Shown here one piece after another: positions 3,309-60,440 of a stretch of 61,373 nt of DNA. The notes under the pieces are model-generated. The model saw only the letters and a program-made list of their open reading frames with translations. It did no database searches and was not told the DNA's origin. The position numbers were made by a program, and so were the translations under genes. The DNA is taken from assembly GCA_943354975.1 (NCBI GenBank), contig CALRDS010000001.1:1-61373 (forward strand). Direction: 5' to 3'. Within the stretch, counting starts at the first letter, position 1. Every line of letters starts with the position of its first letter. The stretch comes from Candidatus Nomurabacteria bacterium (GTDB taxonomy: Bacteria > Patescibacteriota > Minisyncoccia > Phycocordibacterales > UBA5272).

Positions 3309-3347
3309 ACCGGTGCCCCTACCCCTTGAAATTCAGGGCACACCGGT
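3309..3347. terminator. intrinsic terminator (functional for the minus-strand cassette, possibly bidirectional)
   Basis: Stem ACCGGTG(T)GCCC / GGGGCACCGGT, flanked by an A run on + and a T run on -. It abuts the stop codon at 3348-3350. Confidence 0.6.
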
Positions 3348-3611
3348 TCAATCTTCGCCCGCCGCGGCATCCTTGAGACTCCTTGAAACTGGCTTGGCGG
3401 TTTCAGACAATGGGGGTAACGTTCCGCCACTCAAAATGATGCGAACACTTTTGATTATTGCGTGTTTCGCGCTGTCATGTCTTTCTACCAACCCAACCAT
3501 TGTTGGACACCCAACAAGATCTTCCAGTTTATTCAAGAATGGAATCCCTATCAGGTTTTCTAGAACTCCCGCTGGGTCATCTGCGAAAAGATCAGCTTCA
3601 GATTCAGACAT
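3348..3611 (-). CDS. hypothetical 87-aa protein, GC-rich cassette A
   Basis: TTGACT (3665-3670), 17 nt, TATAGT (3642-3647). GGAG lies 7 nt before the ATG and the terminator is at 3309-3347. G+C is visibly above the flanks. No family recognised. Confidence 0.55.
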   Translation of the reverse strand: MSESEADLFADDPAGVLENLIGIPFLNKLEDLVGCPTMVGLVERHDSAKHAIIKSVRIILSGGTLPPLSETAKPVSRSLKDAAAGED

Positions 3612-3678
3612 GGTGTTTCTCCACGCTTAATGATTTATATAACTATACAACTATTGCTGATACAAGTCAATATTATTA

Positions 3679-5218: not shown

Positions 5219-5246
5219 AAAATAAAACTCCGCCGTAGCGGAGCCT

Positions 5247-5591
5247 TCAAGCTTTCTCCTTTCGTTCTTTTTGACCTCTGTTGATTTTGTCCAGTCTTTG
5301 CTGTCTTTCTTCAGCCAGTGTTCGCAAATACGCGCGCCGAGCTATTTCTAATTCATCAACTTTCTTGGCTTTCTTTGTTTCCCTAGCTTCCTCGGTTTCT
5401 TTTTGTCTTTGGTCGTAGATCCATTTTTTCTCTCGAATCCAATCCTCGGCTATAGATTGTTTTCTAAATCTTTCTACCGCCATTTTGTGTTCACTACGTG
5501 GAATTAGGCTTTTGGCAATTAGGAACAGTGCGAAGGCAATAATGAGAGTTACCGCCACCAACTCCAGCTCCTCTATAATGAAATTAATCAA
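5247..5591 (-). CDS. small single-pass membrane protein with charged coiled-coil tail (cassette L)
   Basis: The track ORF is trimmed to the TTG preceded by GGGAG. TTGCCT (5647-5652), 17 nt, TATGAT (5624-5629). Terminator CTCCGC-cgta-GCGGAG at 5228-5243. Confidence 0.5.
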   Translation of the reverse strand: MINFIIEELELVAVTLIIAFALFLIAKSLIPRSEHKMAVERFRKQSIAEDWIREKKWIYDQRQKETEEARETKKAKKVDELEIARRAYLRTLAEERQQRLDKINRGQKERKEKA

Positions 5592-5673
5592 TTTATTCTC
5601 CCTTTTCGTACAATCAAGAGATATCATACACGACCTTGCATAATAAGGCAAAATACGGTATAATTTCCCAACT

Positions 5674-12618: not shown

Positions 12619-12969
12619 TTGTTTATGTGGCACAGTATACAAGAAAACTTGAAAAAAATCAATAGCTACCTATCTTGGGGTGACTGTTTCAGTTTATTTA
12701 TAACAACCTTGTTTCTGGGCACTTTTTTAACATTTATATATCTAGAAAAAGCCGATTCCTACATACCCGTGCGATATATAGAGTCTAACGGGGAAATTTT
12801 GTCTAAAAATAATATCTCGAAGCCGTTTGCGAGTAGAAGCGGTAAAACCTATACCTTTTCTTGGTGCCAAGGATCTACAATTATAAGTGAGAAAAACAAA
12901 ATATATTTTTCAACTGAAGACGAGGCCATTAACTCAGGTAGAGTTTTATCCAAGCTTTGCCAAAAATAA
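12619..12969 (+). CDS. membrane-anchored protein with C-terminal Cys-containing (Ada-like/sunset-type) motif
   Basis: TM helix. The C-terminus reads GKTYTFSWCQGSTII..KNKIYF.TE.EA...GR..SKLC. An ATG at 12625 is an alternative start. Confidence 0.55.
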   Translation: MFMWHSIQENLKKINSYLSWGDCFSLFITTLFLGTFLTFIYLEKADSYIPVRYIESNGEILSKNNISKPFASRSGKTYTFSWCQGSTIISEKNKIYFSTEDEAINSGRVLSKLCQK

Positions 12970-17077: not shown

Positions 17078-17110
17078 AATAAAAAAGGCACAACCACTTC
17101 CGTGGTGTGC

Positions 17111-17311
17111 TTATTGGGGTTTCTGACCATAGTGCATCAGGTCTCGGAAAAACGCCACGTGGACCATGAAGCACAGGACCGCCACTCCGCCAAGGTTCGC
17201 GATGAAGCAAATCTCCGGCGAGAGGGGAATCAGGTACATGTTGATGAACATGAGTCCACCGAATTCCAAGGCGATTGGCCACCAAATCATGTATAGAAAC
17301 AACAGAATCAT
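17111..17311 (-). CDS. small hydrophobic protein (66 aa, ~2 TM), GC-rich cassette B
   Basis: MILLFLYMIWWPIALEFGGLMFINMYLIPL...; the track ORF runs to 17359. TTGACA, 17 nt, TAACAT upstream. Terminator GCACACCAC-GGAA-GTGGTTGTGC plus a T run at about 17085-17110. G+C is well above the flanks. Confidence 0.45.
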   Translation of the reverse strand: MILLFLYMIWWPIALEFGGLMFINMYLIPLSPEICFIANLGGVAVLCFMVHVAFFRDLMHYGQKPQ

Positions 17312-17453
17312 CGTTCCCTTGGTCCTCGGAAAATGTTTTAAGACACTTCTCCTTATCATTGGGATTCTTATATGTTACAACCAAAACCAATTTCTGTCAA
17401 TATTGCTCTAGTTAGTACAGACGAACCGAGACTTTTCTTAAAGCAACATCACT

Positions 17454-17481
17454 GGAAACTAAAAACTAAAAACTGTAAACT
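17454..17481 (+). repeat. heptad tract GGAAACT AAAAACT AAAAACT GTAAACT
   Basis: Exact 7-nt phasing. The last unit supplies TAAACT (17476-17481), 6 nt before ATG 17488. Confidence 0.7.
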
Positions 17482-17487
17482 ACCTAC

Positions 17488-30682: not shown

Positions 30683-30689
30683 ATTAAAT

Positions 30690-30724
30690 AGTTTACAGTT
30701 TATAGTTGTTAGTTACTAGTTAAT
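30690..30724 (-). repeat. heptad tract (AGTTNNN)x5 on +, (NNNAACT)x5 in scpA sense
   Basis: AGTT at 30690, 30697, 30704, 30711 and 30718. The proximal unit gives TAAACT, 7 nt before the scpA ATG (30682). Confidence 0.7.
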
Positions 30725-30758: not shown

Positions 30759-30787
30759 TTGACAAAATATCATTTCTAGTGTATAAT
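30759..30787 (+). promoter_or_regulatory. consensus sigma70 promoter of cassette C
   Basis: TTGACA (30759-30764), 17 nt, TATAAT (30782-30787), a perfect match to both hexamers. Confidence 0.6.
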
Positions 30788-31069
30788 TATATATGTTCTA
30801 CCTTATTAACATTTTTTGGAGGCTATACGCCGTTTTACCGAATTACCGTTGATATTGTCAACAACAAGGCTTTCCGGCAGGTGTTTGCGGAAATGCTGAA
30901 GTTGGCAAAAGAATACGAATGTTCCGTAATCGGAACATTCGCCGGAAAGGAAATCGAAGTATGCCATAACGACACCCTCGAAGGGGCCGCCAAAGCATAC
31001 AAAATTCCCGCCAACGCAAGTCAGGGCGGAAGGAACACGATGACCTTCTCGGTAAGGGTTGCTGGATAG
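30779..31069 (+). CDS. hypothetical protein, GC-rich cassette C (true start uncertain)
   Basis: The track ORF starts inside its own -10 box, so the real start is downstream. GGAGG at 30818-30822 is not followed by a canonical start in frame. An in-frame ATG near 30893 would give 58 aa. Confidence 0.4.
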   Translation: MYNYICSTLLTFFGGYTPFYRITVDIVNNKAFRQVFAEMLKLAKEYECSVIGTFAGKEIEVCHNDTLEGAAKAYKIPANASQGGRNTMTFSVRVAG

Positions 31070-31093
31070 AGATATCTAGGCAATCCCTCAAGG

Positions 31094-31122
31094 CGCGCGT
31101 AAAGTCTACGCGCGTTTTTTTT
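31094..31122. terminator. intrinsic terminator, shared with the convergent GH18 gene
   Basis: CGCGCGTA-aagtc-TACGCGCG (8 bp) followed by T8. The GH18 stop codon (31121-31123) lies in the T run. Confidence 0.7.
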
Positions 31123-32266
31123 ATTTTAAGATTTCCCAAAGTCTTGGGTCATTGCCTCCATCTACTTTAAATACTGCAACGCCTCCTAATTTATAAAGCT
31201 TTGCAAGGCGTATTTTATCTGCTATAGCAGTTGCATCTGAGTACCATACTAAGTATTGTTTATAACTTCCAAGTGAATTCCCATTAAGATCAGTGCTTGT
31301 GGAATATACATAGCTGAGCTCCCCTGCTACATTTCTATTTGGGACAATGTTCAGACTTTTTGCCAATTCATCTGCATAATTAAAATTCATAGAACCGATA
31401 CGCAAATATTTTGTACTACTGGTGCCTACAGCAGGAACGATTTCGTACTTATTACCGTATGTTGGTACTCCAATTATAATTTTTTTCGCTGGAATATCTT
31501 CAAGTGCAAGTGTTATAACTTTTTTAACCCAATCAATATCAGCAACTGGTCTATATAAATTACCTGAATTTTTATTTTGAAATGTTAGTAGTGCGTCATC
31601 TTCTGCTTGGTCATATGCCATGATTCTAACTTGGTCACACACTCGACCAATTATTTTATAATCATTCGAATATTCTACTCGTGCAAAAATACTTTTAGAT
31701 GTGGTGGCATATTTACTCTCAGGTGGAATTCTAGCTTCTACTGTGCAAATAAGTTGTTTGCCTTGTTTGTGTAAAGCTGAAGCTAAGTCAGTTAAAAATA
31801 GCGAGAAGTGTGGTTTTATCTCTGCAACTTTATTTTCATAATCAATATCAATTCCATCAAATCTATATTTTTTAACTAAATCTACTATATCTTTTATGTT
31901 CGCATCACGTTTCTTTTTCTGAGAAAGGAGAATGTACATCGCGTCTTTTTCTTTTTGAGTTTGTGGGTATGACAGAATACTAGGATATATTTTTATTGCG
32001 TTCGGTTTTTTATGCTTTCTCGCCTCAGATATTAAGGTAGCCCATGGTTCTTCTTCTATTTTAAGTGCATTTTTTATAGAACCATCGTACTGAAGCTCAA
32101 AAGCAAATGGACTGATTTGTGTTACAGATTTCAGATTAGCCAGTGTAGTACTCGCACCAGCGGTCTTTTGCCAATATGGAATCCAAATAGCCCGCTCAAA
32201 AGTGGCTGCAGAGACTGTATTTGTAAAACCTATTGAAATTATAAAGAACAGCAGAATCTTCTTCAT
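31121..32266 (-). CDS. glycoside hydrolase family 18 protein (chitinase/peptidoglycan hydrolase-like)
   Basis: Signal peptide. The catalytic motif FDGIDIDYE (DxxDxDxE) is present. Confidence 0.8.
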   Translation of the reverse strand: MKKILLFFIISIGFTNTVSAATFERAIWIPYWQKTAGASTTLANLKSVTQISPFAFELQYDGSIKNALKIEEEPWATLISEARKHKKPNAIKIYPSILSYPQTQKEKDAMYILLSQKKKRDANIKDIVDLVKKYRFDGIDIDYENKVAEIKPHFSLFLTDLASALHKQGKQLICTVEARIPPESKYATTSKSIFARVEYSNDYKIIGRVCDQVRIMAYDQAEDDALLTFQNKNSGNLYRPVADIDWVKKVITLALEDIPAKKIIIGVPTYGNKYEIVPAVGTSSTKYLRIGSMNFNYADELAKSLNIVPNRNVAGELSYVYSTSTDLNGNSLGSYKQYLVWYSDATAIADKIRLAKLYKLGGVAVFKVDGGNDPRLWEILK

Positions 32267-33685: not shown

Positions 33686-33811
33686 AGCTTTTTGATTATA
33701 GCAAAAATTGACTAATGTAGAAATATAAACAGGTTTTTGGAGAAGTATTTAAATCTTAATTTGACTTTTTTATTAATTGTGCTACAATTAATATGTTATC
33801 AATTAAGGAGA

Positions 33812-34222
33812 ATGACCTTGAAAAGCATATTGATAGTGGACGGGAACCGCGTTGTCGCGGGTTTGATGAAAGAAAGCCTGCTGACACATCTGGGTGAAAT
33901 TGAGGGCGGCGTAGACGCAATAATCATCAGGTCCTACTTCCTTGCAATTTCCGCAATAAGTGCGTACCAACCCGACCTGATTTCAACTGGAATGGTTTTT
34001 CCCGAAAAAGGCGGAACACCTCCGAGATCAGATATGGGGGAGCAGTTGATCCGAGATGCCCGCAAGATCTGCCCTGGTACCCCTGTAATCCTTTTCACCG
34101 GGGATACGCCACGAAACTTCAACCATACGGGATTACCGTCGGATCGAATCATTCATAAGGGAAATCCCGAGACCTACATAGCGTGGGTAACGAAGGTAAG
34201 GGAATTACTAACGGCCAAATGA
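33812..34222 (+). CDS. stand-alone CheY-like pseudo-receiver, GC-rich cassette D
   Basis: ILIVDG...PDLISTGMVFP...PVILFTGD...HKG follows the REC beta1/3/4/5 pattern, but Gly sits where the phospho-acceptor Asp should be. TTGACT (33761-33766), 16 nt, TGcTACAAT (33783-33788). AAGGAG at 33805-33810; the TTG at 33818 is an alternative start. Confidence 0.6.
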   Translation: MTLKSILIVDGNRVVAGLMKESLLTHLGEIEGGVDAIIIRSYFLAISAISAYQPDLISTGMVFPEKGGTPPRSDMGEQLIRDARKICPGTPVILFTGDTPRNFNHTGLPSDRIIHKGNPETYIAWVTKVRELLTAK

Positions 34223-34247
34223 AGATACACCCGGCAAAGATAGACGG

Positions 34248-34273
34248 GCGCGTCCTCTGCGACGCGCTTTTTT
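34248..34273. terminator. intrinsic terminator, shared with convergent trpS
   Basis: GCGCGTC-ctctgc-GACGCGC plus T6. The trpS stop (34272-34274) lies in the T run. Confidence 0.7.
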
Positions 34274-35256: not shown

Positions 35257-36669
35257 CTAGTGTATCATTTTCTCCTCTCTTTTTATAAATCGTCCTAAAA
35301 TTGTACCCAGCACCATACCAATTGCAGAAGCGACAAATCCCATAAATGTCCCTGGAATATCAGAAGTCACAAAATATTCCCAGTATTGCCAAACACTTAT
35401 TCCAGCAATAATCGAAACAAGTGCACCAAAAGAATTTGCCTTCTTACTATAAAGCCCGACTGCAAGTGGAATAAAGCCCGCAACTAAAGTAACAGAATAA
35501 GCACTTGATACAAGTTCATAAATACGAGCATTATCCTTAAGTGCAAGAATAACACCTCCGAATGCTATAAATATAACCGCAATACGAATAATATGAAGAC
35601 GGAACCTATCCGAAATATCACTAAAGAACAGCTTGATAACATTTTCTGCAAGAAGTGTTCCTGGTGCCAAAAGCGCACCTGAAGCGGTTGAAATAATTGC
35701 TGAAACAAGTGCGCCGAAAAATAGAACCTGAATCAGAAGTGGTGTATGATCTCCAACAAGTGTGAGTATAAGGTTTTGCGGATCGCTTGCGAGAACATTT
35801 GGATACAGAATACGAGCAACTCCTGCGATTAGAAGTGGTATAAGTACAATAGAAAAATAAAGTAGTCCCCCAATAACAGATGCCCACACTGAAATAGTTG
35901 CAGATTTTGCAGACATGGCACGCTGATATATATCTTGTTGAGGAATCGAACCTAGACCAATTGTCATAAGTGCAGTAACAAATATAATCCATTCAGTAAG
36001 TGACTGCTTAGATTCTGGAACCACCCTCCAAAAATCAGGAGGAGTCTGTGCGATAAGTGCATCCATACCCCCTATCTTGGAAAGTGCATACGCGAAAATT
36101 GCACCTAGCCCTACAATAATCACAACGGACTGTATCGTGTCAAGAAGTGCCACAGAATACATCCCACCAAAAAATGTGTAGAACGTCACAAGCGCAGCAG
36201 CAAAAAGAATCGCCCACTGAAGAGAAAGTGTGGGTATAACTGTAGAGATGACTAACCCTAATGCAAGAAACTGAGCCGCAACCCAACCAAAATAACTGAT
36301 GATTATTGCAACTGAAAGAAACACTGCAATTATTGTGTTGTATCTGTTCTTGAAATAGTCTCCAATTGTTAGAAAACTTAGATTGTAAAGTTTCCTATTA
36401 AAGAAAATCCCGGCAATAATGAGACATAGTGCAGCGCCGAATGGGTCTTCGATAACATTTCCAAAACCTCCTTCGGCAAATTTTGTAGATGCACCTAAAA
36501 TAGATTCAGATCCAAACCAAGTCGCAAATACAGTTGCAAGAGCCATATAAAATGGAAGAGACCTCCCGGCTAAAACATAATCCTCTGAAGTTTTTACCTT
36601 ACGGGCAGCATATACACCAATTGCAATCATTACAACCGTATAGGCCAAAATAAAGATTGGAAGAAGCAT
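35257..36669 (-). CDS. sodium:solute symporter family transporter
   Basis: About 13 TM segments. N-terminal YVLAGRSLP......ATW.G matches the SSF signature. Confidence 0.85.
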   Translation of the reverse strand: MLLPIFILAYTVVMIAIGVYAARKVKTSEDYVLAGRSLPFYMALATVFATWFGSESILGASTKFAEGGFGNVIEDPFGAALCLIIAGIFFNRKLYNLSFLTIGDYFKNRYNTIIAVFLSVAIIISYFGWVAAQFLALGLVISTVIPTLSLQWAILFAAALVTFYTFFGGMYSVALLDTIQSVVIIVGLGAIFAYALSKIGGMDALIAQTPPDFWRVVPESKQSLTEWIIFVTALMTIGLGSIPQQDIYQRAMSAKSATISVWASVIGGLLYFSIVLIPLLIAGVARILYPNVLASDPQNLILTLVGDHTPLLIQVLFFGALVSAIISTASGALLAPGTLLAENVIKLFFSDISDRFRLHIIRIAVIFIAFGGVILALKDNARIYELVSSAYSVTLVAGFIPLAVGLYSKKANSFGALVSIIAGISVWQYWEYFVTSDIPGTFMGFVASAIGMVLGTILGRFIKREEKMIH

Positions 36670-36708: not shown

Positions 36709-36727
36709 TAAAAGGTAAAAAAAGAAA

Positions 36728-36764
36728 CCCGCTTACCGCAGTAAAAAATTTTTTGCGATAAACG
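36728..36764 (-). terminator. intrinsic terminator of cassette E
   Basis: On the minus strand CCGTTTATCGC...GCGGTAAGCGG forms 11 bp including two G-U pairs, followed by GTTTCTTTTTTT. Confidence 0.6.
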
Positions 36765-36769
36765 GATAT

Positions 36770-37141
36770 TTATACAGGAACCGGATGAAGGCCTTCGACG
36801 TCCGAAACGTAAACCTTGTGCACGTCGTTGAAATACAGAACGTTTGATCTGAAGCGAACTCGTGGCCCTTTATTTGGGGTTTCCTCGATTTCAAACGGAA
36901 TGATCAGGTTGGGAAATAATACCAAGATGCACGGCACATTGGAGATAACCTCCCAATCCCCTGGGGGAATCCCATGCTCACCAAGTTTGCGCTTGATCGA
37001 CCACCTGACTTTGATGACCACAAAATCACTATCGTCTACGGAAAGGCTTTCGATTGGTCCATAGATAGCTTCCTCTAAATTATTGAGCTCGATGTAACCT
37101 TTAGGTTTCCTTTCTGCGACCAAATTCCAATCGTGTTCCAT
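36770..37141 (-). CDS. hypothetical 123-aa protein, GC-rich cassette E
   Basis: TTGACA (37228-37233), 17 nt, TAGTGT (37205-37210). GGGGGA lies 7 nt before the ATG. Own terminator. No family recognised. Confidence 0.55.
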   Translation of the reverse strand: MEHDWNLVAERKPKGYIELNNLEEAIYGPIESLSVDDSDFVVIKVRWSIKRKLGEHGIPPGDWEVISNVPCILVLFPNLIIPFEIEETPNKGPRVRFRSNVLYFNDVHKVYVSDVEGLHPVPV

Positions 37142-37247
37142 TTGTTATTCCCCCTAAAGATCTCCACTTGCTACAGGTGTGAAAAAAACCTGGGTACAAA
37201 GTAAACACTACAATATTAAAATATTTGTGTCAAACTAGATTCTTAGT

Positions 37248-38333: not shown

Positions 38334-38456
38334 ATATCTTTACATTACCACAATTATAAACAGATGTAAAAATTTCTTTGATTGATTTTCCTTAGTTTGA
38401 CAAACTTATTTATTAGTGATAGTATTTTTATAAACTAAAAATTTTAGGAGTACAGC

Positions 38457-39149
38457 ATGTCCTTTGAAGAAAAATATGTCTTTGAAATCACAACAGTAGA
38501 CAAACAGGGCACCTCAACCAGAGAAGACGGTTTTGCATTCGATACGGGCACAAAACGACTGACAATAGCCTCATACATACCTGACCCTTCATTGGTAGAA
38601 ATAGAGGCTGTCGAACTGGCTATAAAAAATAACTGGGTGATACGACCAAGAGATAAACCATTTTTTAGGAAAATAATTGGTATACCAGATGGATTTTCTT
38701 TTGCAATGCCAACAAGATGTATTCTTGCTCATTTTGATTATCCGTACAATAAACCGATTGTAACCGTCGGAAAGGCAGTAATTCTTACGGCATACAGCTT
38801 TGAAGAAGCCAAAATTCATGGTCGTTCTGATCTGCGACTTAAGGGATTAGGGCACTTTTTTTCGATTTTACGCTACCCTCAATTATCCCCACACGCTCAA
38901 GTGCACGAATTGATGTTATTACTCAATGGGACTTGTGATAAATTTTTAAGAAAATCTGGACTGCCTTTTCTGGGCAAAAATAAGTCCGGCAAAATTGTTG
39001 TGAGAGGTGGTCACTCAACAATAAGCCGCCCACTCCGAGATGTAGCATCATTAATAAACTGCTGGCAACTTTCAAACTATTTGGACACACCTGAGAAACG
39101 TGCTGTCTGGTTTTCACACCAAGATTTACAGAACTTTCTAAAAAAATGA
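38457..39149 (+). CDS. minimal RNB-like (RNase II/R catalytic-domain-like) protein, cassette F
   Basis: TVDKQGTSTREDGFAF resembles RNB motif I (IDxxxxxDxDDAL). IASYIPDPS resembles IADP/V. HSTISRPLRDVASLINCWQL resembles HFTSPIRRYxDLxVHRQL. There are no CSD/S1 domains. TTGACA (38397-38402), 17 nt, TAGTAT; AGGAG lies 6 nt before the ATG. The functional call is tentative. Confidence 0.45.
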   Translation: MSFEEKYVFEITTVDKQGTSTREDGFAFDTGTKRLTIASYIPDPSLVEIEAVELAIKNNWVIRPRDKPFFRKIIGIPDGFSFAMPTRCILAHFDYPYNKPIVTVGKAVILTAYSFEEAKIHGRSDLRLKGLGHFFSILRYPQLSPHAQVHELMLLLNGTCDKFLRKSGLPFLGKNKSGKIVVRGGHSTISRPLRDVASLINCWQLSNYLDTPEKRAVWFSHQDLQNFLKK

Positions 39150-39152
39150 TCG

Positions 39153-39180
39153 GGCGTCGCGCAAGCGTCGCCTGTTTTTT
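39153..39180 (+). terminator. intrinsic terminator of cassette F
   Basis: GGCGTCGC-GCAA-GCGTCGCC (one T-T mismatch, GNRA loop) followed by a T run. Confidence 0.65.
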
Positions 39181-42163: not shown

Positions 42164-42196
42164 GCCTCTCCAAGTAGAAACCTTGGGAGGCTTTTT
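42164..42196. terminator. bidirectional-looking intrinsic terminator after cassette G
   Basis: GCCTCTCCAAG...CTTGGGAGGC stem flanked by A5 and T5. Confidence 0.6.
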
Positions 42197-42225
42197 AGGA
42201 AGCAGCAAGCGAGATTTCACATTGG

Positions 42226-42630
42226 TCATGGAACCCCTCGACGTAGAGATTCCTGTAGCCAAACTGTGTCTTTTGCCCATTCAAGAATTTCGGGAAGTCT
42301 TTCATTCACAAGATTTTCATGGTCTCCAAAGACTCCGCGGAGTTGATATTTTTTGTTACATTCCAGAAGATGAGCATCATCTCCCAACAAATTAAAAACG
42401 AGGAGCCCGTGTGGATTAAACTCAGATTCATTTGATTTATCTCTCCCGATATTTTCCCAATCAAATGATATATCAGAATTTTCTCCCATCATCCCGCGAG
42501 GTCTTTGTATTTTATTGCTAAACAAAAAAACCAATTCCGTTGGTATTCCTCTACTCCCAAGCCTGAAGTAACGGAGAAATTTCGTATTCGGTAAACTGAT
42601 AATTGGACACATGCGGATAATTAAATCCAT
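42226..42630 (-). CDS. hypothetical 134-aa protein, GC-rich cassette G
   Basis: Trimmed to the ATG preceded by GGGAGG (42638-42643) at 7 nt (MDLIIRMCP...). No family recognised. Confidence 0.55.
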   Translation of the reverse strand: MDLIIRMCPIISLPNTKFLRYFRLGSRGIPTELVFLFSNKIQRPRGMMGENSDISFDWENIGRDKSNESEFNPHGLLVFNLLGDDAHLLECNKKYQLRGVFGDHENLVNERLPEILEWAKDTVWLQESLRRGVP

Positions 42631-42789
42631 GAAGAAACCTCCCAACCAAGAACAGAATTTACTTGCTTAATTGCAAGAATATTTTAAATACTACAGAAAA
42701 TATATAATAAATCAAATTAACCAAAAAGCTTCCAATTTCTATGATTTCTTGTTAATTATTATATTTTGTAAACATATAATATTGAAATG

Positions 42790-43458: not shown

Positions 43459-43866
43459 TTATCTCTTACTCCAAGTAGGTGCTTTACGAGCTTTCTTTAG
43501 TCCAAATTTCTTTCTTTCTACTTGTCTTGAGTCACGTTTCAAAAATCCAAGTTTCTTAAGAGTGTTTTTTACATTTTCATCTCGCATAACTAGAGTACGA
43601 GAAAGTCCATGGCGAACAGCTTCAGCTTGAGCATGTATTCCTCCACCTAAAACATGGACTGATACCAAAAACTTTTCTCCAACTTCTCCCTTTGAAATAG
43701 CCTCCTGAGCAATCATTTGAAGCTCACCAGTCGCAAAATAATCCTTCACATCCTTTTCATTTACAACAAAAGACCCCTTTGTTGCTGGAGTAATGCGAAC
43801 ACGAGCAATAGCAGTCTTTCGACGACCTACAGCTTCTATATAACGATTTTTTGTTTCTGTTGACAT
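43459..43866 (-). CDS. rpsI: 30S ribosomal protein S9
   Basis: GRRK.A.ARV...G.G...VN....Y...V.GGG..GQA.A...G..R and the C-terminal tail ...KAPTWSKR. Confidence 0.95.
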   Translation of the reverse strand: MSTETKNRYIEAVGRRKTAIARVRITPATKGSFVVNEKDVKDYFATGELQMIAQEAISKGEVGEKFLVSVHVLGGGIHAQAEAVRHGLSRTLVMRDENVKNTLKKLGFLKRDSRQVERKKFGLKKARKAPTWSKR

Positions 43867-43876
43867 ATAATTTAAT

Positions 43877-43908
43877 AGTTTTTAGTTTACAGTTATCAGT
43901 TTTTAGTT
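43877..43908 (-). repeat. heptad tract (AGTTNNN)x5 between rplM and rpsI
   Basis: AGTT at 43877, 43884, 43891, 43898 and 43905. The sense strand reads ...GATAACT GTAAACT AAAAACT... Confidence 0.7.
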
Positions 43909-47356: not shown

Positions 47357-47389
47357 AGTTTTTTAGTTTACTGTTGTCAGTTTTCAGTT
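47357..47389 (-). repeat. heptad-like tract upstream of rpsM
   Basis: AGTT/TGTT at 47357, 47365, 47372, 47379 and 47386. The sense strand reads ...GAAAACT GACAACA GTAAACT AAAAAACT. Confidence 0.6.
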
Positions 47390-49608: not shown

Positions 49609-49615
49609 ACAAAAA

Positions 49616-49657
49616 GCGGTATTGATAATGAAATTACCATTTCATTATCAATACCGC
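49616..49657 (-). terminator. 19-bp perfect-stem terminator of cassette H
   Basis: GCGGTATTGATAATGAAAT-TACC-ATTTCATTATCAATACCGC, followed on the minus strand by TTTTTGTTT. Confidence 0.7.
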
Positions 49658-49667
49658 TCGACCCGAT

Positions 49668-49937
49668 TTACTTCCCAAATTTGAACACGGCAATTCGTGT
49701 TGTTGGAAAAATGATAACCCCTGGCAAGGAGGGTTTTCCGTTTGCCTCAGCAGGAAACAAAATACTTCCGCGAGGCAATCTGGCGTGCATGAAGACCCGA
49801 CTACCGTTTCCTTGTACTAAACAAGGCCCATCTTTTGATTCGTCTGCTCTGTGCCATTCGCATGTACGTTCTGGTGAATTCGGTAGAGTTAACTGATTGG
49901 CAATAGTCCTTATCCAATTTATTCCTAGCATATTCAT
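49668..49937 (-). CDS. hypothetical 89-aa protein, GC-rich cassette H
   Basis: TTGACT (49991-49996, directly after the alaS stop), 17 nt, TAGATT (49968-49973). This places the TSS downstream of the track start, so the ATG at 49937 is used, preceded by GGAGGA at 7 nt. Confidence 0.5.
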   Translation of the reverse strand: MNMLGINWIRTIANQLTLPNSPERTCEWHRADESKDGPCLVQGNGSRVFMHARLPRGSILFPAEANGKPSLPGVIIFPTTRIAVFKFGK

Positions 49938-49996
49938 GTGCAAATCCTCCAAATAAGGTATCTGCATAATCTATCTTAAAAGAAACTTACAGTCAA

Positions 49997-51967: not shown

Positions 51968-52097
51968 TACCTGATTATAGCTTAGAAATTTATAAAAATG
52001 AATACTCACATAAATAACTAATAATACAGTGTAGTACAACAATATTTAATTAAAAATAAAGACCCGCTTAGCGAGCCTTCTTTTAACATATTTTTTG

Positions 52098-52493
52098 CTA
52101 AGGCAGCTTGGCCAAAGCGTTATCGATTTTAGTCAAGCCATATTGCTCCCAAATAAGTTCATTTTTTTTGTGGAGGTATACCGTATAGTATAATTCTGAA
52201 TCGAATTTATACTTTTCGCTAAAAAGCTTTCTGAGGATTACATCAAGTTCAACTCCAGTAAATTTAGCTATTTTTTCCAGAACAACGGGTTTTGGGTCGC
52301 TGCAAGTCCCAAATTCATACTCGCCTAGGAGTCCAGTACTCACACCAATCTTCTTCGCAAAAAAATCACGTGAGTATGGTTTTTTCATATTTGAGGATTT
52401 AGCCCTCTCTCGAAGAGACCTTAAGTATGCTCCAAATTTTGGTAGTATTTTTCTTTCGCTCCTGGGAACACTTCTCGAACCTTTAGCTTTCAT
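52098..52493 (-). CDS. XRE-family helix-turn-helix transcriptional regulator, cassette J
   Basis: Trimmed to the ATG preceded by GGAG. FGAYLRSLRE...SRDFFAKKIGVSTGLLGEYEFG...P....LEKIAKFTGVELD is a Cro/C1-type HTH. TTGACT, 17 nt, TAGTTT, with palindrome CTAGTtgACTAG over the -35. Confidence 0.75.
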   Translation of the reverse strand: MKAKGSRSVPRSERKILPKFGAYLRSLRERAKSSNMKKPYSRDFFAKKIGVSTGLLGEYEFGTCSDPKPVVLEKIAKFTGVELDVILRKLFSEKYKFDSELYYTVYLHKKNELIWEQYGLTKIDNALAKLP

Positions 52494-52644
52494 GATTTTC
52501 TCCAATTGAACAATTACTTTAAAACTACAATAGATTATGTAGCTAGTCAACTAGATTTCAATCATCTGTTCGGTTCGTAAAGGAAATCTTCGGCATTCAA
52601 TTTATCCGACTCGTCGCTCTGGGGCTCAAGCGACTTCGCTGGAT

Positions 52645-52702
52645 GATTGAATTTAAGATTTAAAAATGACCTTTCGGCCATTTTTAAATCTTAAATTCAA
52701 TC
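52645..52702 (-). terminator. 24-bp perfect hairpin whose 5' arm is the last six codons plus stop of ychF
   Basis: GATTGAATTTAAGATTTAAAAATG (52645-52668) and CATTTTTAAATCTTAAATTCAATC (52679-52702). In the mRNA sense the loop closes as CC-GAAA-GG. Confidence 0.6.
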
Positions 52703-53841
52703 ACATCCCCATCCTTCACAATGTATTCCTTTCCTTCCGTACGTAATACCCCTTTTGATTTTGCTTCTGCAAAACTACCTAAATCTATTAAATCTTCGTA
52801 TGATACAACTTCTGCACGAATAAATTTATCTTTGAAATCTGTGTGAATAGCTTGTCCTGCTACTGGTGCTGTACTTCCCTTCTTGATTGTCCATGCTCGT
52901 GTTTCCATTTCTCCGGTTGTGAGATACGTTTCTAAACCAAGCAAATTGTATCCAGCATTAATGAGGTTGTTGATTCCGTCATCACTCTCATTTGCCCCAC
53001 CTCGCTCATGCTCCAAATTTGGCGCATGAGCTTCGCGGGACGAATTACCAGTGAGGGCAATTCGCATCTCTTCTTTCTCAATACCTTCAAAATCTTTTAA
53101 TTCGTCTTCTATCTTTGCATCCACAACAACATAATGAAACTTATTTTCCTTAAAATATGCAATCAACTTCTCAAATCTACCATCCTTCATTTCATCTAAA
53201 TTCTTCCCACCAGATTGCTTATTTAATACATAAAGTATTGGCTTCATTGTTATTAAATGTAAGTCTCTGATTAACTTCATTTCATCTTCAGTAAATGATA
53301 AAAGATTTGCAAGTTTTCCTTCATCAAATGCCTTTTTGAAAACATCCAATAATTCTTGAAGTTTTATAGCGTCCTTGTCTCCGCGCCTTACATCACGACC
53401 TATTGTCTGACTTCTCTTTTCTACTGTCTGCATATCTGCCAAAATTAGTTCCATATTTATGATTTCAATATCACGAAGTGGATCCACTGTCCCCTCTACG
53501 TGTATCAAATCACTATTTTCATAAATACGTACTACTTCAGCAATAGCATCTGTCTCGCGGATATGTGAAAGAAAAGCATTTCCTAGACCCTCACCAGACG
53601 ACGCCCCTTTTACCAGGCCTGCAATGTCGACAAATGAAACAATTGCTGGAATTATTTTTTTAGAATTACTAATTTTTGAAAGTTTTTCAAGTCGCTCATC
53701 AGGCACAGGAACTACCCCAACTGACGGATCAATCGTACAGAAAGGATAATTTTCTGCTGGGACAGACTTCTTAGTGAGCGCATTAAATAACGTGGACTTC
53801 CCAACATTTGGCAACCCTACAATTCCAATAGACAAAGACAT
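52684..53841 (-). CDS. ychF: ribosome-binding ATPase YchF
   Basis: GIVGLPNVGKSTLFNALT, the DIAGLV motif, and the C-terminal TGS domain ending GDVIEFKI. Confidence 0.95.
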   Translation of the reverse strand: MSLSIGIVGLPNVGKSTLFNALTKKSVPAENYPFCTIDPSVGVVPVPDERLEKLSKISNSKKIIPAIVSFVDIAGLVKGASSGEGLGNAFLSHIRETDAIAEVVRIYENSDLIHVEGTVDPLRDIEIINMELILADMQTVEKRSQTIGRDVRRGDKDAIKLQELLDVFKKAFDEGKLANLLSFTEDEMKLIRDLHLITMKPILYVLNKQSGGKNLDEMKDGRFEKLIAYFKENKFHYVVVDAKIEDELKDFEGIEKEEMRIALTGNSSREAHAPNLEHERGGANESDDGINNLINAGYNLLGLETYLTTGEMETRAWTIKKGSTAPVAGQAIHTDFKDKFIRAEVVSYEDLIDLGSFAEAKSKGVLRTEGKEYIVKDGDVIEFKI

Positions 53842-55181: not shown

Positions 55182-55412
55182 TCATTTCTTAAATAGCTCT
55201 TGGAGCTCCTTTTGATACTTCTTCATCACATCTAAGCTGGCGTACATTTCTGGTTTTCCTTGCTTCTTCAATACTTCAATTTCTTTTGCTATCTTACTAA
55301 ATAACGCGGGATTTTTATCCACGGCCACTTTCAACATTTCCTGTTGTTCTTTTGGCAAATTCTTTGCCCCATATTTTACTGCCTGTTTTACAAAAAAATC
55401 TCTAATTCCCAT
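55182..55412 (-). CDS. hypothetical 76-aa helical protein
   Basis: Clean ORF ending ...DVMKKYQKELQELFKK*. No family recognised. Confidence 0.6.
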   Translation of the reverse strand: MGIRDFFVKQAVKYGAKNLPKEQQEMLKVAVDKNPALFSKIAKEIEVLKKQGKPEMYASLDVMKKYQKELQELFKK

Positions 55413-56097: not shown

Positions 56098-56125
56098 AGT
56101 TTTCAATTTACAGTTTAGAGTTTTC
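56098..56125 (-). repeat. heptad tract AGTTTTC AATTTAC AGTTTAG AGTTTTC
   Basis: 7-nt period, upstream of TATACT and the dsbA-like ATG (56074). Confidence 0.6.
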
Positions 56126-59787: not shown

Positions 59788-59934
59788 TTATACTCCACTA
59801 TCTTTCTATTGTCCTAGAAAAAGCCTGTGGATAAGATAAATAAATTACATTGTTTGAATATAGAGTTTTGTTTTGACATAAAATAAATTTATGCTACAAT
59901 ATAATAAATAACCCCGAGGAGCTCTTTTAAGACC

Positions 59935-60339
59935 ATGAGCAAAAAATTAATTTACAATAAAGCTCTAGCAATTCCCATAGACCGCGTAGCAGCACGGGTG
60001 CTAAAAGAAGGAGAGCACTACGAGCCGCGAAGAATACCCAACAAGTTCTCACTTTTATACCACTCAGAAACACCACTGCCGATTCGACCCACACCAGTAG
60101 ATGCGCCAAAACTAGTGGGTATTACATTCGGAAGGCTTTCTGTAATTGGTCTACATGCAACAGTTAATGGTTTGTGGGTGGTCCGTTGCACCTGTGGCAA
60201 TTATGAAGGTCGCAGGACAAAAGCAATACTAAACCCCAAGAACAAATATGATCGTTGTGCAAAATGCGAACATTTAAGACATATAAAGAGCAATTACCAT
60301 TTTCTTAAAACAGGAAAAAATTGCGACAGCAATGATTAA
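59935..60339 (+). CDS. hypothetical zinc-ribbon protein, cassette I
   Basis: FGRLSVIG....NGLWVVRCTCGN...(17)...CAKC is a four-Cys module common in phage/mobile small proteins. TTGACA (59873-59878), 16 nt, TGcTACAAT (59895-59900). GAGGAG upstream. Terminator GACCC...GGGTC plus a T run (60365-60394). Confidence 0.55.
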   Translation: MSKKLIYNKALAIPIDRVAARVLKEGEHYEPRRIPNKFSLLYHSETPLPIRPTPVDAPKLVGITFGRLSVIGLHATVNGLWVVRCTCGNYEGRRTKAILNPKNKYDRCAKCEHLRHIKSNYHFLKTGKNCDSND

Positions 60340-60440
60340 CAATTTGTTTCTAACACCACCTCACGACCCTTAGATTGGGGTCATTTTTATTTTCAAACAA
60401 AAAGCAAAACTTGGATTTATAAAGCAGAAAAATTGGTTTA

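Follow-up and report, generated by a model that had tools for sequence, protein, structure and literature searches.

Eleven small single-gene units that lie between the housekeeping genes of the DNA presented above, a 61.4-kb stretch of a Patescibacteria genome (the window, analysed at its full length), are probably not one system but dispersed, independently transcribed, lineage-specific single-gene islets at insertion-tolerant junctions of a syntenic Paceibacteria backbone, a reading that we favour with some confidence though well short of certainty. The host, a metagenome-assembled genome, was assigned to the class Paceibacteria by the neighbourhoods of its tryptophanyl- and aspartyl-tRNA synthetases (TrpRS and AspRS), and the window (36.6% G+C) codes almost exclusively for housekeeping functions. 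All eleven units, hereafter cassettes A to J and L, were present at the coordinates and on the strands given in the original prediction, which had described them from the DNA alone as moron-like. Their histories are mixed in age and origin, with E belonging to a family found in mobile contexts, J to a phage family, D and F being older residents and C an orphan. They do not form the single class of recent acquisitions that had been proposed, as D and F have diverged orthologues at the same positions in relatives. The islets represent a well-known type of genome flexibility, here in a neat and scattered form.

Judged by its signals, each unit is predicted to be a monocistronic, autonomous transcription unit with an AT-rich sigma70-type promoter, a Shine-Dalgarno (SD) site, one small open reading frame (ORF) and an intrinsic terminator. 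We scanned the window for matches of at least 10/12 to TTGACA-N16-18-TATAAT (38 hits) and used 59 core genes as the reference set for promoter and composition statistics. A promoter at this threshold ending 13-60 nt upstream of the start codon was found for seven of the eleven cassettes (A, B, C, D, F, I and J) compared with 4/59 core genes. The near-consensus promoters originally proposed therefore hold for these seven, that of C being perfect, whereas E, H and L have weaker boxes and the promoter of G is uncertain, as had been acknowledged. GGAG-type SD sites precede ten of the eleven starts, with B lacking one at its first ATG, and in all eleven cassettes a stem-loop (ΔG −10.9 to −31 kcal/mol) followed by a T-run lies within about 35 nt of the stop codon, both in agreement with the prediction. 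A stricter terminator scan was positive for C, D, F, I, J and L, compared with about five positives among all core genes. In C and D the T-run of the terminator overlaps the stop of a host gene that converges on the cassette, GH18 (31121) for C and trpS (34272) for D, which indicates that these hairpins are bidirectional terminators, and in the antisense units C, D and F the hairpin would also terminate the convergent host gene. The tail TTTTTTATTTT was enriched in the window (10 matches against 0.77 expected) and one copy sits at a core-gene terminator as well, such that it represents the general terminator tail of the genome and not a cassette junction.

Base composition sets most of the cassettes apart. 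Core genes had a G+C content of 0.367 ± 0.025 and a G+C content at third codon positions (GC3) of 0.254 ± 0.042, and the atypical composition that had been put forward for statistical testing was borne out by the difference in GC3 between cassettes and core genes (Mann-Whitney, p = 2.6e-7 against all core genes and p = 2.8e-5 against small core genes). In seven of eleven units the GC3 z-score was at least 2.9, the excess being strong for B (9.9), C (7.5), D (6.7) and E (6.2) and moderate for A (3.6), L (3.2) and H (2.9); it was marginal for I (2.4), J (2.0), F (1.6) and G (1.5). A G+C content near one half, claimed for most cassette ORFs, was found in A-E (0.46-0.49) but not in H (0.44), L and J (0.41) or F, G and I (0.38-0.39). 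The z-score of the codon adaptation index lay between −3 and −8 in nine cassettes (A-E, L, H, I and J) and was −2.2 in F and −1.2 in G. The rise in G+C is limited to the ORF and the terminator stem, with host-like 5' promoter and leader regions (0.22-0.36), and the composition step at the borders of the GC-rich cassettes B-E (GC3 0.5-0.67) is sharp. GC3 of the flanking genes was 0.274 within 80 codons of a cassette and 0.247 over the rest of these genes (p = 0.053); as the effect on the flanks is marginal, we rejected GC-biased gene conversion spreading from recombination hot spots as a source of the composition.

We then compared the junctions with those of relatives, represented by TrpRS and AspRS neighbourhoods from GTDB genomes and JGI metagenomes (about 160 Paceibacteria loci, the nearest with TrpRS 71% and AspRS 81% identical to the window copies; loci are numbered with the prefix L). 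The array GrpE-DnaK-DnaJ-(SSF)-TrpS-AspS-(GH18)-ScpA-ScpB-S11-MraY-FtsW-MurG-GltX is conserved over these loci, and some of its junctions, MraY|FtsW|MurG among them, are tight throughout, with enormous variation at others. The TrpS|AspS spacer, which holds cassette D, is 586 nt in the window, 5-70 nt in many outgroups and up to 7 kb elsewhere. The DnaK|DnaJ spacer (cassette F) is 864 nt compared with 43-46 nt in L084, L090 and L091, the DnaJ|SSF spacer (cassette E) 578 nt compared with 113-115 nt in L089 and L091, and the GH18|ScpA spacer (cassette C) 438 nt compared with 24 nt in L093 and L094. Thus the units do interrupt pairs that are adjacent in relatives, as originally stated, and the tightness of the junctions in outgroups and some sisters indicates that the tight state is ancestral and the fillings are derived. 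At the five junctions tested, the gap is tight in some relatives and occupied in others by unrelated, often GC-rich orphan genes of the same architecture, which points to hot spots of accessory gene turnover and accords with the dispersed accessory gene set suggested earlier. When every ORF in the related loci was searched, cassettes C, E and G had no homologue in any of them, a result at odds with the alternative of every cassette being conserved in place across the lineage.

The same bias extends to the genes found in the gaps of the close clade, where gap ORFs exceeded core genes in GC3 by a mean of 0.085 (33/76 by more than 0.10, 18 by more than 0.20, and one below −0.10), compared with a mean difference of −0.023, about symmetrical, among more distant Paceibacteria. 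In one locus (L012), all seven gap ORFs had GC3 of 0.53-0.63 against a core value of 0.318, and most had TTGACA-17-TAnnnT promoters and terminators. Nine of ten sister gap ORFs tested by Pfam were orphans. The tenth, at the SSF|TrpS junction of L091 (4214-5308), is a complete ketol-acid reductoisomerase gene, ilvC (KARI_N, E = 1e-71; KARI_C, E = 1.2e-61), with GC3 of 0.73 against 0.35 for the core, and is unmistakably a foreign metabolic gene at one such junction. Two longer genes in the window, encoding GH18 (31121-32266) and the SSF transporter (35257-36669), are confined to the close clade and have host-like composition; in outgroups AspS is followed directly by ScpA, and DnaJ or other genes precede TrpS. 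Both look like older, ameliorated insertions into the same junctions.

Cassette C was the focal unit. Its promoter (30759-30787, +; TTGACA, 17 nt, TATAAT) matches the consensus at 12/12 positions, and the SD site GGAGG (30818-30822, +), read directly from the sequence, precedes an ORF of 80 codons (30827-31069, +; GC3 0.57) that runs from ACG to a TAG stop. Its intrinsic terminator (31089-31127, +), a 12-bp GC-rich stem followed by T8ATTTT, is common to the convergent GH18 gene. No ATG, GTG or TTG lies near the SD site, ACG being the in-frame codon 4 nt past GGAGG, and the ORF was skipped by public gene calls; two other assemblies contain the same sequence. The protein had no relative among 5.8 billion protein clusters. 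A single-sequence AlphaFold model gave a compact beta-alpha-beta-beta-alpha-beta fold (predicted local distance difference test score, pLDDT, 70; predicted template modelling score, pTM, 0.60), for which Foldseek found no significant match in the PDB (best E = 0.1, to HPr-like and de novo folds). We take C to be a real or recently real protein gene, which may initiate at ACG or may have freshly lost its start and be a very recent pseudogene.

Searches of the window for mobility features gave negative results. There was no integrase or transposase among the tested window ORFs, and no target-site duplications, att-like sequences or flanking repeats at the cassette borders, with window-wide repeats unrelated to these borders; border-to-border matches among the cassettes were no better than in shuffled controls. 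This agrees with the absence of an integrase, a transposase and a shared junction sequence noted originally. PADLOC and NCBIfam returned no hit for the ten cassettes other than I. The same strain was recovered in independent assemblies of other samples, with 1-2 mismatches per 12-16 kb, and the cassettes were identical across these assemblies (C, D, E, F and J in three of them), which excludes assembly chimeras.

Taken as islets of accessory genes, the units could have arisen as follows. The GC-rich ones (B, C, D and E, then A, L and H) would stem from a GC-richer gene pool, and the near-host ones (F, G, I and J) would be older or locally derived. Uptake of external DNA would have been followed by illegitimate recombination, or by recombination aided by homology in the conserved flanks, with no site-specific element taking part. 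The survivors would be those insertions that had brought or gained their own promoter and terminator and left essential co-transcription unbroken.

Several observations weigh against this account. The mechanism is one that we infer from the pattern, and no donor was identified for the GC-rich cassettes. The comparison with relatives covers five of the eleven junctions, those of C, D, E, F and G. Presence/absence polymorphism at the strain level was not seen, all assemblies of the organism being 99.98-99.99% identical, and exact-protein look-ups of ScpA, MraZ and YqeY recovered the same strain alone. The cassette promoters and terminator tails look host-type. When 233 gap ORFs were compared all against all they fell into 29 families, of which 24 had all detected members at one junction; among the other five, two consist of cassettes D and F with their same-junction orthologues and three are small pairs from distant genomes that link different junctions. 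Gap-gene families are thus overwhelmingly junction-specific, which speaks for turnover at each junction and not for hopping between junctions.

Cassette D (33761-34273, +) lies antisense between aspS and trpS, its ORF (33812-34222, 136 amino acids, with an alternative TTG start at 33818) sharing its terminator with trpS. Orthologues occupy the same junction in the same orientation in L087 (31% identity, E = 9e-10), where the flanks are 71-79% identical, and in L012; when all fetched loci were searched with hmmsearch and jackhmmer, no further members of the family came up. In the relatives that carry D, the identities of the flanks gave no obvious sign of co-transfer. Cassette F (38397-39180, +; ORF 38457-39149, 230 amino acids) lies antisense between dnaK and dnaJ. 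Its one positional homologue, in the same orientation, is that of L014 (26% identity); a second, in L003, is doubtful. At 26-31% identity, compared with about 63-87% for the flanks in those loci, D and F are old, fast-evolving residents. Moreover, the D orthologues are still GC3-rich (z 9.2 in L012 and 3.1 in L087) at about 30% identity, by which point amelioration should have erased a foreign signature, and the GC-richness of the E family in several unrelated AT-rich genomes should likewise not be expected of plain recent foreign DNA. This lasting GC-richness across old orthologues is the main misfit of the islet reading; selection for rare GC-ending codons and repeated re-acquisition from a GC-richer pool are both candidate causes.

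These results bear directly on the possibility that the cassettes are old, vertically inherited, very fast-evolving lineage-specific genes whose raised GC3 is intrinsic and maintained, either because rare GC-ending codons are selected to hold expression down or through local GC-biased gene conversion. For part of the set, junction specificity together with the D and F orthologues agrees better with vertical descent and rapid divergence than with repeated acquisition, and the retention of high GC3 by D in three lineages, the host-like promoters and terminators, the lack of mobility signatures in the repeat and border searches and the low codon adaptation of the cassettes all agree with it. Weakly constrained genes are, however, expected to drift toward AT and not toward GC. 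The junctions are tight in outgroups and some sisters, C, E and G have no homologue at their junction in any relative, the E family occurs in unrelated contexts that include a tRNA-linked island, and a foreign ilvC sits at a sister junction; the sharp composition step with its marginal flank gradient further disfavours gene conversion. We regard vertical descent as a doubtful explanation.

The islet reading is further informed by cassette E (36712-37233, −; ORF 36770-37141, 123 amino acids), which is located between dnaJ and the gene for the SSF transporter and has the same orientation as they do. An exhaustive HMMER search placed it in a widespread, uncharacterised family of 81 representative clusters (best identity 61%), with no Pfam or PDB hit even for a 40-sequence profile. 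Its homologues occur in L164 and L165 beside a type I restriction-modification system and fragments of tRNAs, in L166 near a Y1 transposase and in L167 among metabolic genes. They are likewise promoter-SD-ORF-terminator units and are GC-rich relative to AT-rich neighbours in each context (GC3 in L167 0.685 against about 0.25). In L165 (1-2200; also L164, 200-1440), an unrelated AT-rich contig, three GC-rich single-gene cassettes stand in tandem, and the closest homologue is the last of them. A hairpin closes each cassette, and after it comes a nearly identical spacer, TTTTCTWTTTATATAAAATGGRGGATTTTGACA, that supplies the next −35 box; the array is flanked by the type I restriction-modification system and, as seen by eye, by duplicated tRNA-gene fragments. 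From its sequence, the arrangement resembles an array of cassettes that share a conserved boundary element.

Three of these features, the GC3-rich orthologues at about 30% identity, the GC-rich E family in AT-rich genomes and the L165 array with its conserved terminator-plus-promoter spacer, would fit a second alternative, namely that one Paceibacteria clade has a dedicated, as yet undescribed process that loads GC-rich orphan promoter-ORF-terminator genes into the junctions of housekeeping operons and keeps them GC-rich over the long term. If so, it would amount to a capture or maintenance mechanism or to selection for GC-rich coding, as opposed to ordinary sporadic horizontal transfer. We consider such a process unlikely.

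Derivation from phages, be it as genuine morons, as homing-endonuclease-type genes that stand free or as remains of decayed prophages, was assessed against phage sequence collections. Cassette J (59873-60394, +; ORF 59935-60339, 134 amino acids), located between mraZ and lysS, speaks for it. J carries a CxC...CxxC pattern and strongly matches phrog_18493, a family without assigned function (E = 1e-28), with a weak match to an HNH PHROG (E = 1e-5); GenBank phages contain proteins up to 42.6% identical, some of them annotated as HNH endonucleases. J had no Pfam or PDB hit; its product is a putative phage-family zinc-ribbon, HNH-like protein. Cassette I (52050-52561, −; ORF 52098-52493, 131 amino acids), between alaS and ychF, encodes an XRE-type helix-turn-helix protein of a class common in phages (HTH_3, PF01381; score 25.6 bits, above the Pfam cut-off of 23; E = 1.2e-5), so that its earlier description as an XRE regulator stands, and the promoter-ORF-terminator build with atypical G+C is textbook moron anatomy. 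Against this, ten of the eleven cassettes had no match in 50,697 GenBank phages, J being the exception, and scans of IMG/VR gave nothing credible for J, E, D or C: no close relative of J was found, and a phage origin of C, D and E was rejected, the sole hit of E spanning 33 residues. No phage structural, integrase or att features were found in the window, and the units are single and scattered among housekeeping genes. A phage origin is therefore quite improbable.

That the GC-rich stretches are non-coding, being structured RNAs, spurious ORFs in GC-rich DNA poor in stops, or assembly chimeras, is highly improbable: ORFs do lie on both strands of these stretches, C has no canonical start and is uncalled in public assemblies, and most products have no homologue or Pfam match, but Rfam at gathering thresholds and ARAGORN detected a tRNA-Gln (415-486, −) alone in the window, leading us to reject structured RNA genes, ten of eleven ORFs have an ATG or TTG start behind an SD site and end shortly before a terminator, the E family is conserved over its 81 clusters, D and F have conserved orthologues, C yields a compact AlphaFold model, and the same sequence was recovered from independent assemblies of different samples.

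Among known systems, the islets seem by analogy closest to the minimal mobile elements of Neisseria while being built like phage morons. Minimal mobile elements were reportedly described in Neisseria by Saunders & Snyder in 2002 and Snyder et al. in 2007. In these elements distinct whole-gene cassettes occur between two conserved genes and are incorporated by homologous recombination (PMC3082526). The islets resemble them in their position between two conserved genes of a backbone shared by about 160 loci, in splitting housekeeping pairs, in having neither mobility genes nor flanking repeats and in their atypical composition. They differ in that variation here is between species and genera (flank proteins 60-85% identical) and not between strains, that many sites lie in one 61-kb core stretch, that every cassette is a complete promoter-to-terminator unit and that there is a clade-wide bias toward GC-rich orphans; flank recombination and natural transformation are carried over to this case as analogies.

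Phage morons are promoter-gene-terminator units of atypical composition between conserved prophage genes. The likeness to them that had been drawn holds, as far as the sequence goes, for the autonomous promoter and terminator and the atypical G+C, and extends to presence or absence between related genomes and to function often being unassigned. It fails for the surroundings, as the islets are flanked by dnaK/dnaJ, tRNA synthetase, scpA, alaS and mraZ genes with no phage or prophage, and J alone has phage relatives. Integron gene cassettes carry attC at the 3' end and a promoterless ORF, with intI and attI nearby. The islets share with them small single ORFs, mostly orphans, of a composition unlike the host, but have their own promoters and are scattered without an array; no attC-like palindrome was found, nor an integrase among the tested ORFs, nor any shared 3' element beyond generic terminators.

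Genomes from the Candidate Phyla Radiation (CPR), or Patescibacteria, are tiny and highly syntenic, and their ways of gaining new functions are poorly understood. In the Saccharibacteria group G1, individual genes are gained and lost on a conserved syntenic backbone, according to the part of the published account drawn on here (PMC7427843). As there, the present case concerns a CPR genome whose gene order is strongly conserved and whose differences come down to single genes gained or lost, although Saccharibacteria are a different CPR class and that part of the account makes no mention of hot spots at junctions, of units with their own promoter and terminator or of a bias toward high G+C. Our pattern fits both minimal mobile elements and individual gene gain and loss of this kind, and the unrecognised acquisition route that had been suggested is not required. 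This suggests that flexible gene content in CPR bacteria may sit largely as self-contained single genes at few core-operon junctions, without recognisable mobile-element machinery. If general, such junctions would be predictable places for lineage-specific host-interaction or defence genes of uncultured episymbionts. The donor pool, biased gene conversion and codon-usage selection are candidate causes of the clade-specific, persistent GC-richness. Because operons such as dnaK-dnaJ are broken up by inserts that lie antisense and carry bidirectional terminators, operon predictions transferred from relatives would be wrong here.

Products of the cassettes compared above were also examined by profile searches. 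D had no Pfam hit, but a three-sequence profile of D and its two orthologues matched CheY-like receivers almost exclusively in the PDB, with weak support (E 0.025-0.5). Where beta-3 ends, the phospho-acceptor position holds Gly in the window copy (STGMVFP) and Asp in the L087 orthologue (SVDMGFP), so the D product is at best a pseudo-receiver; its single-sequence AlphaFold model was too poor for use (pLDDT 40). F was described earlier as RNB-like, which we could not substantiate, as there was no Pfam hit at E ≤ 0.1 and no RNB chain among PDB matches with either the single sequence or a two-sequence profile.

The remaining cassettes are small and mostly orphan. Cassette A (3309-3670, −), between a gene for a 201-residue protein and yqeY, has a promoter, an SD site, an ORF for an orphan of 87 amino acids (3348-3611) and a terminator. 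Cassette L (5222-5652, −), between rmuC and the L21 gene, encodes 114 amino acids from TTG (5247-5591), with one N-terminal hydrophobic helix, judged by eye, and then a charged tail. Cassette B (17085-17435, −; ORF 17111-17359, 82 amino acids, GC3 0.675) lies between the AddA-like helicase-nuclease gene and the PD-(D/E)XK (AddB-like) gene; from hydrophobic stretches seen by eye, the products of B and L look like small membrane proteins. Cassette G (42164-42720, −; ORF 42226-42630), downstream of grpE, encodes an orphan of 134 amino acids. Cassette H (49610-49996, −; ORF 49668-49937) adjoins alaS, encodes an orphan of 89 amino acids and ends in a terminator stem of 21 bp. Two additional ORFs may be further units of the same kind, one of 116 amino acids at 12619-12969 (+) with no Pfam hit (GC3 0.376, z about 3) and one of 76 amino acids at 55182-55412 (−; GC3 0.390, z about 3).

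The surrounding genes include tRNA synthetases for Cys, Glu, Asp, Trp, Ala and Lys, GrpE/DnaK/DnaJ, ScpA/ScpB, MraY/FtsW/MurG, MraZ/RsmH/PBP, RpoA, ribosomal proteins, the AddA-like helicase-nuclease, RecR and RmuC. Among the flanks of the cassettes, Pfam verified the AddA-like and PD-(D/E)XK genes, AlaRS, MraZ, class II LysRS, DnaK/DnaJ, AspRS/TrpRS and ScpA. At the border of cassette J (about 59820-59940), two other same-strain assemblies break their contigs at or inside the cassette, L172 ending about 110 nt upstream of mraZ and an ENA contig beginning inside J, which could reflect population heterogeneity at this junction or chance. Near the tRNA-Gln gene, a 33-nt segment (458-490) of its 5' part recurs with 91% identity about 110 nt away (570-602), with no second tRNA there by ARAGORN or Rfam.

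A leader motif, AAAACTGTAAACTA, contained in an element of about 30 nt, AACTAAAAACTAAAAACTGTAAACTA, occurs on the coding strand 5-36 nt upstream of five host start codons. Its copies, at 17469-17482 (+), 30689-30702 (−), 43883-43896 (−), 47364-47377 (−) and 56111-56124 (−), precede the AddB-like gene, scpA and three genes that start at 43866, 47349 and 56074, where no SD site was noticed by eye; two of them adjoin cassettes B and C. With up to two mismatches there were seven matches compared with 1.57 ± 1.29 expected, and the motif may be a host regulatory or translation-initiation element. Upstream of cassette I, a 28-nt inverted repeat (52644-52703; TGATTGAATTTAAGATTTAAAAATGACC / GGCCATTTTTAAATCTTAAATTCAATCA) extends across the ychF start codon (gene at 52684-53841, −); its arms are 96% complementary and lie 4 nt apart.

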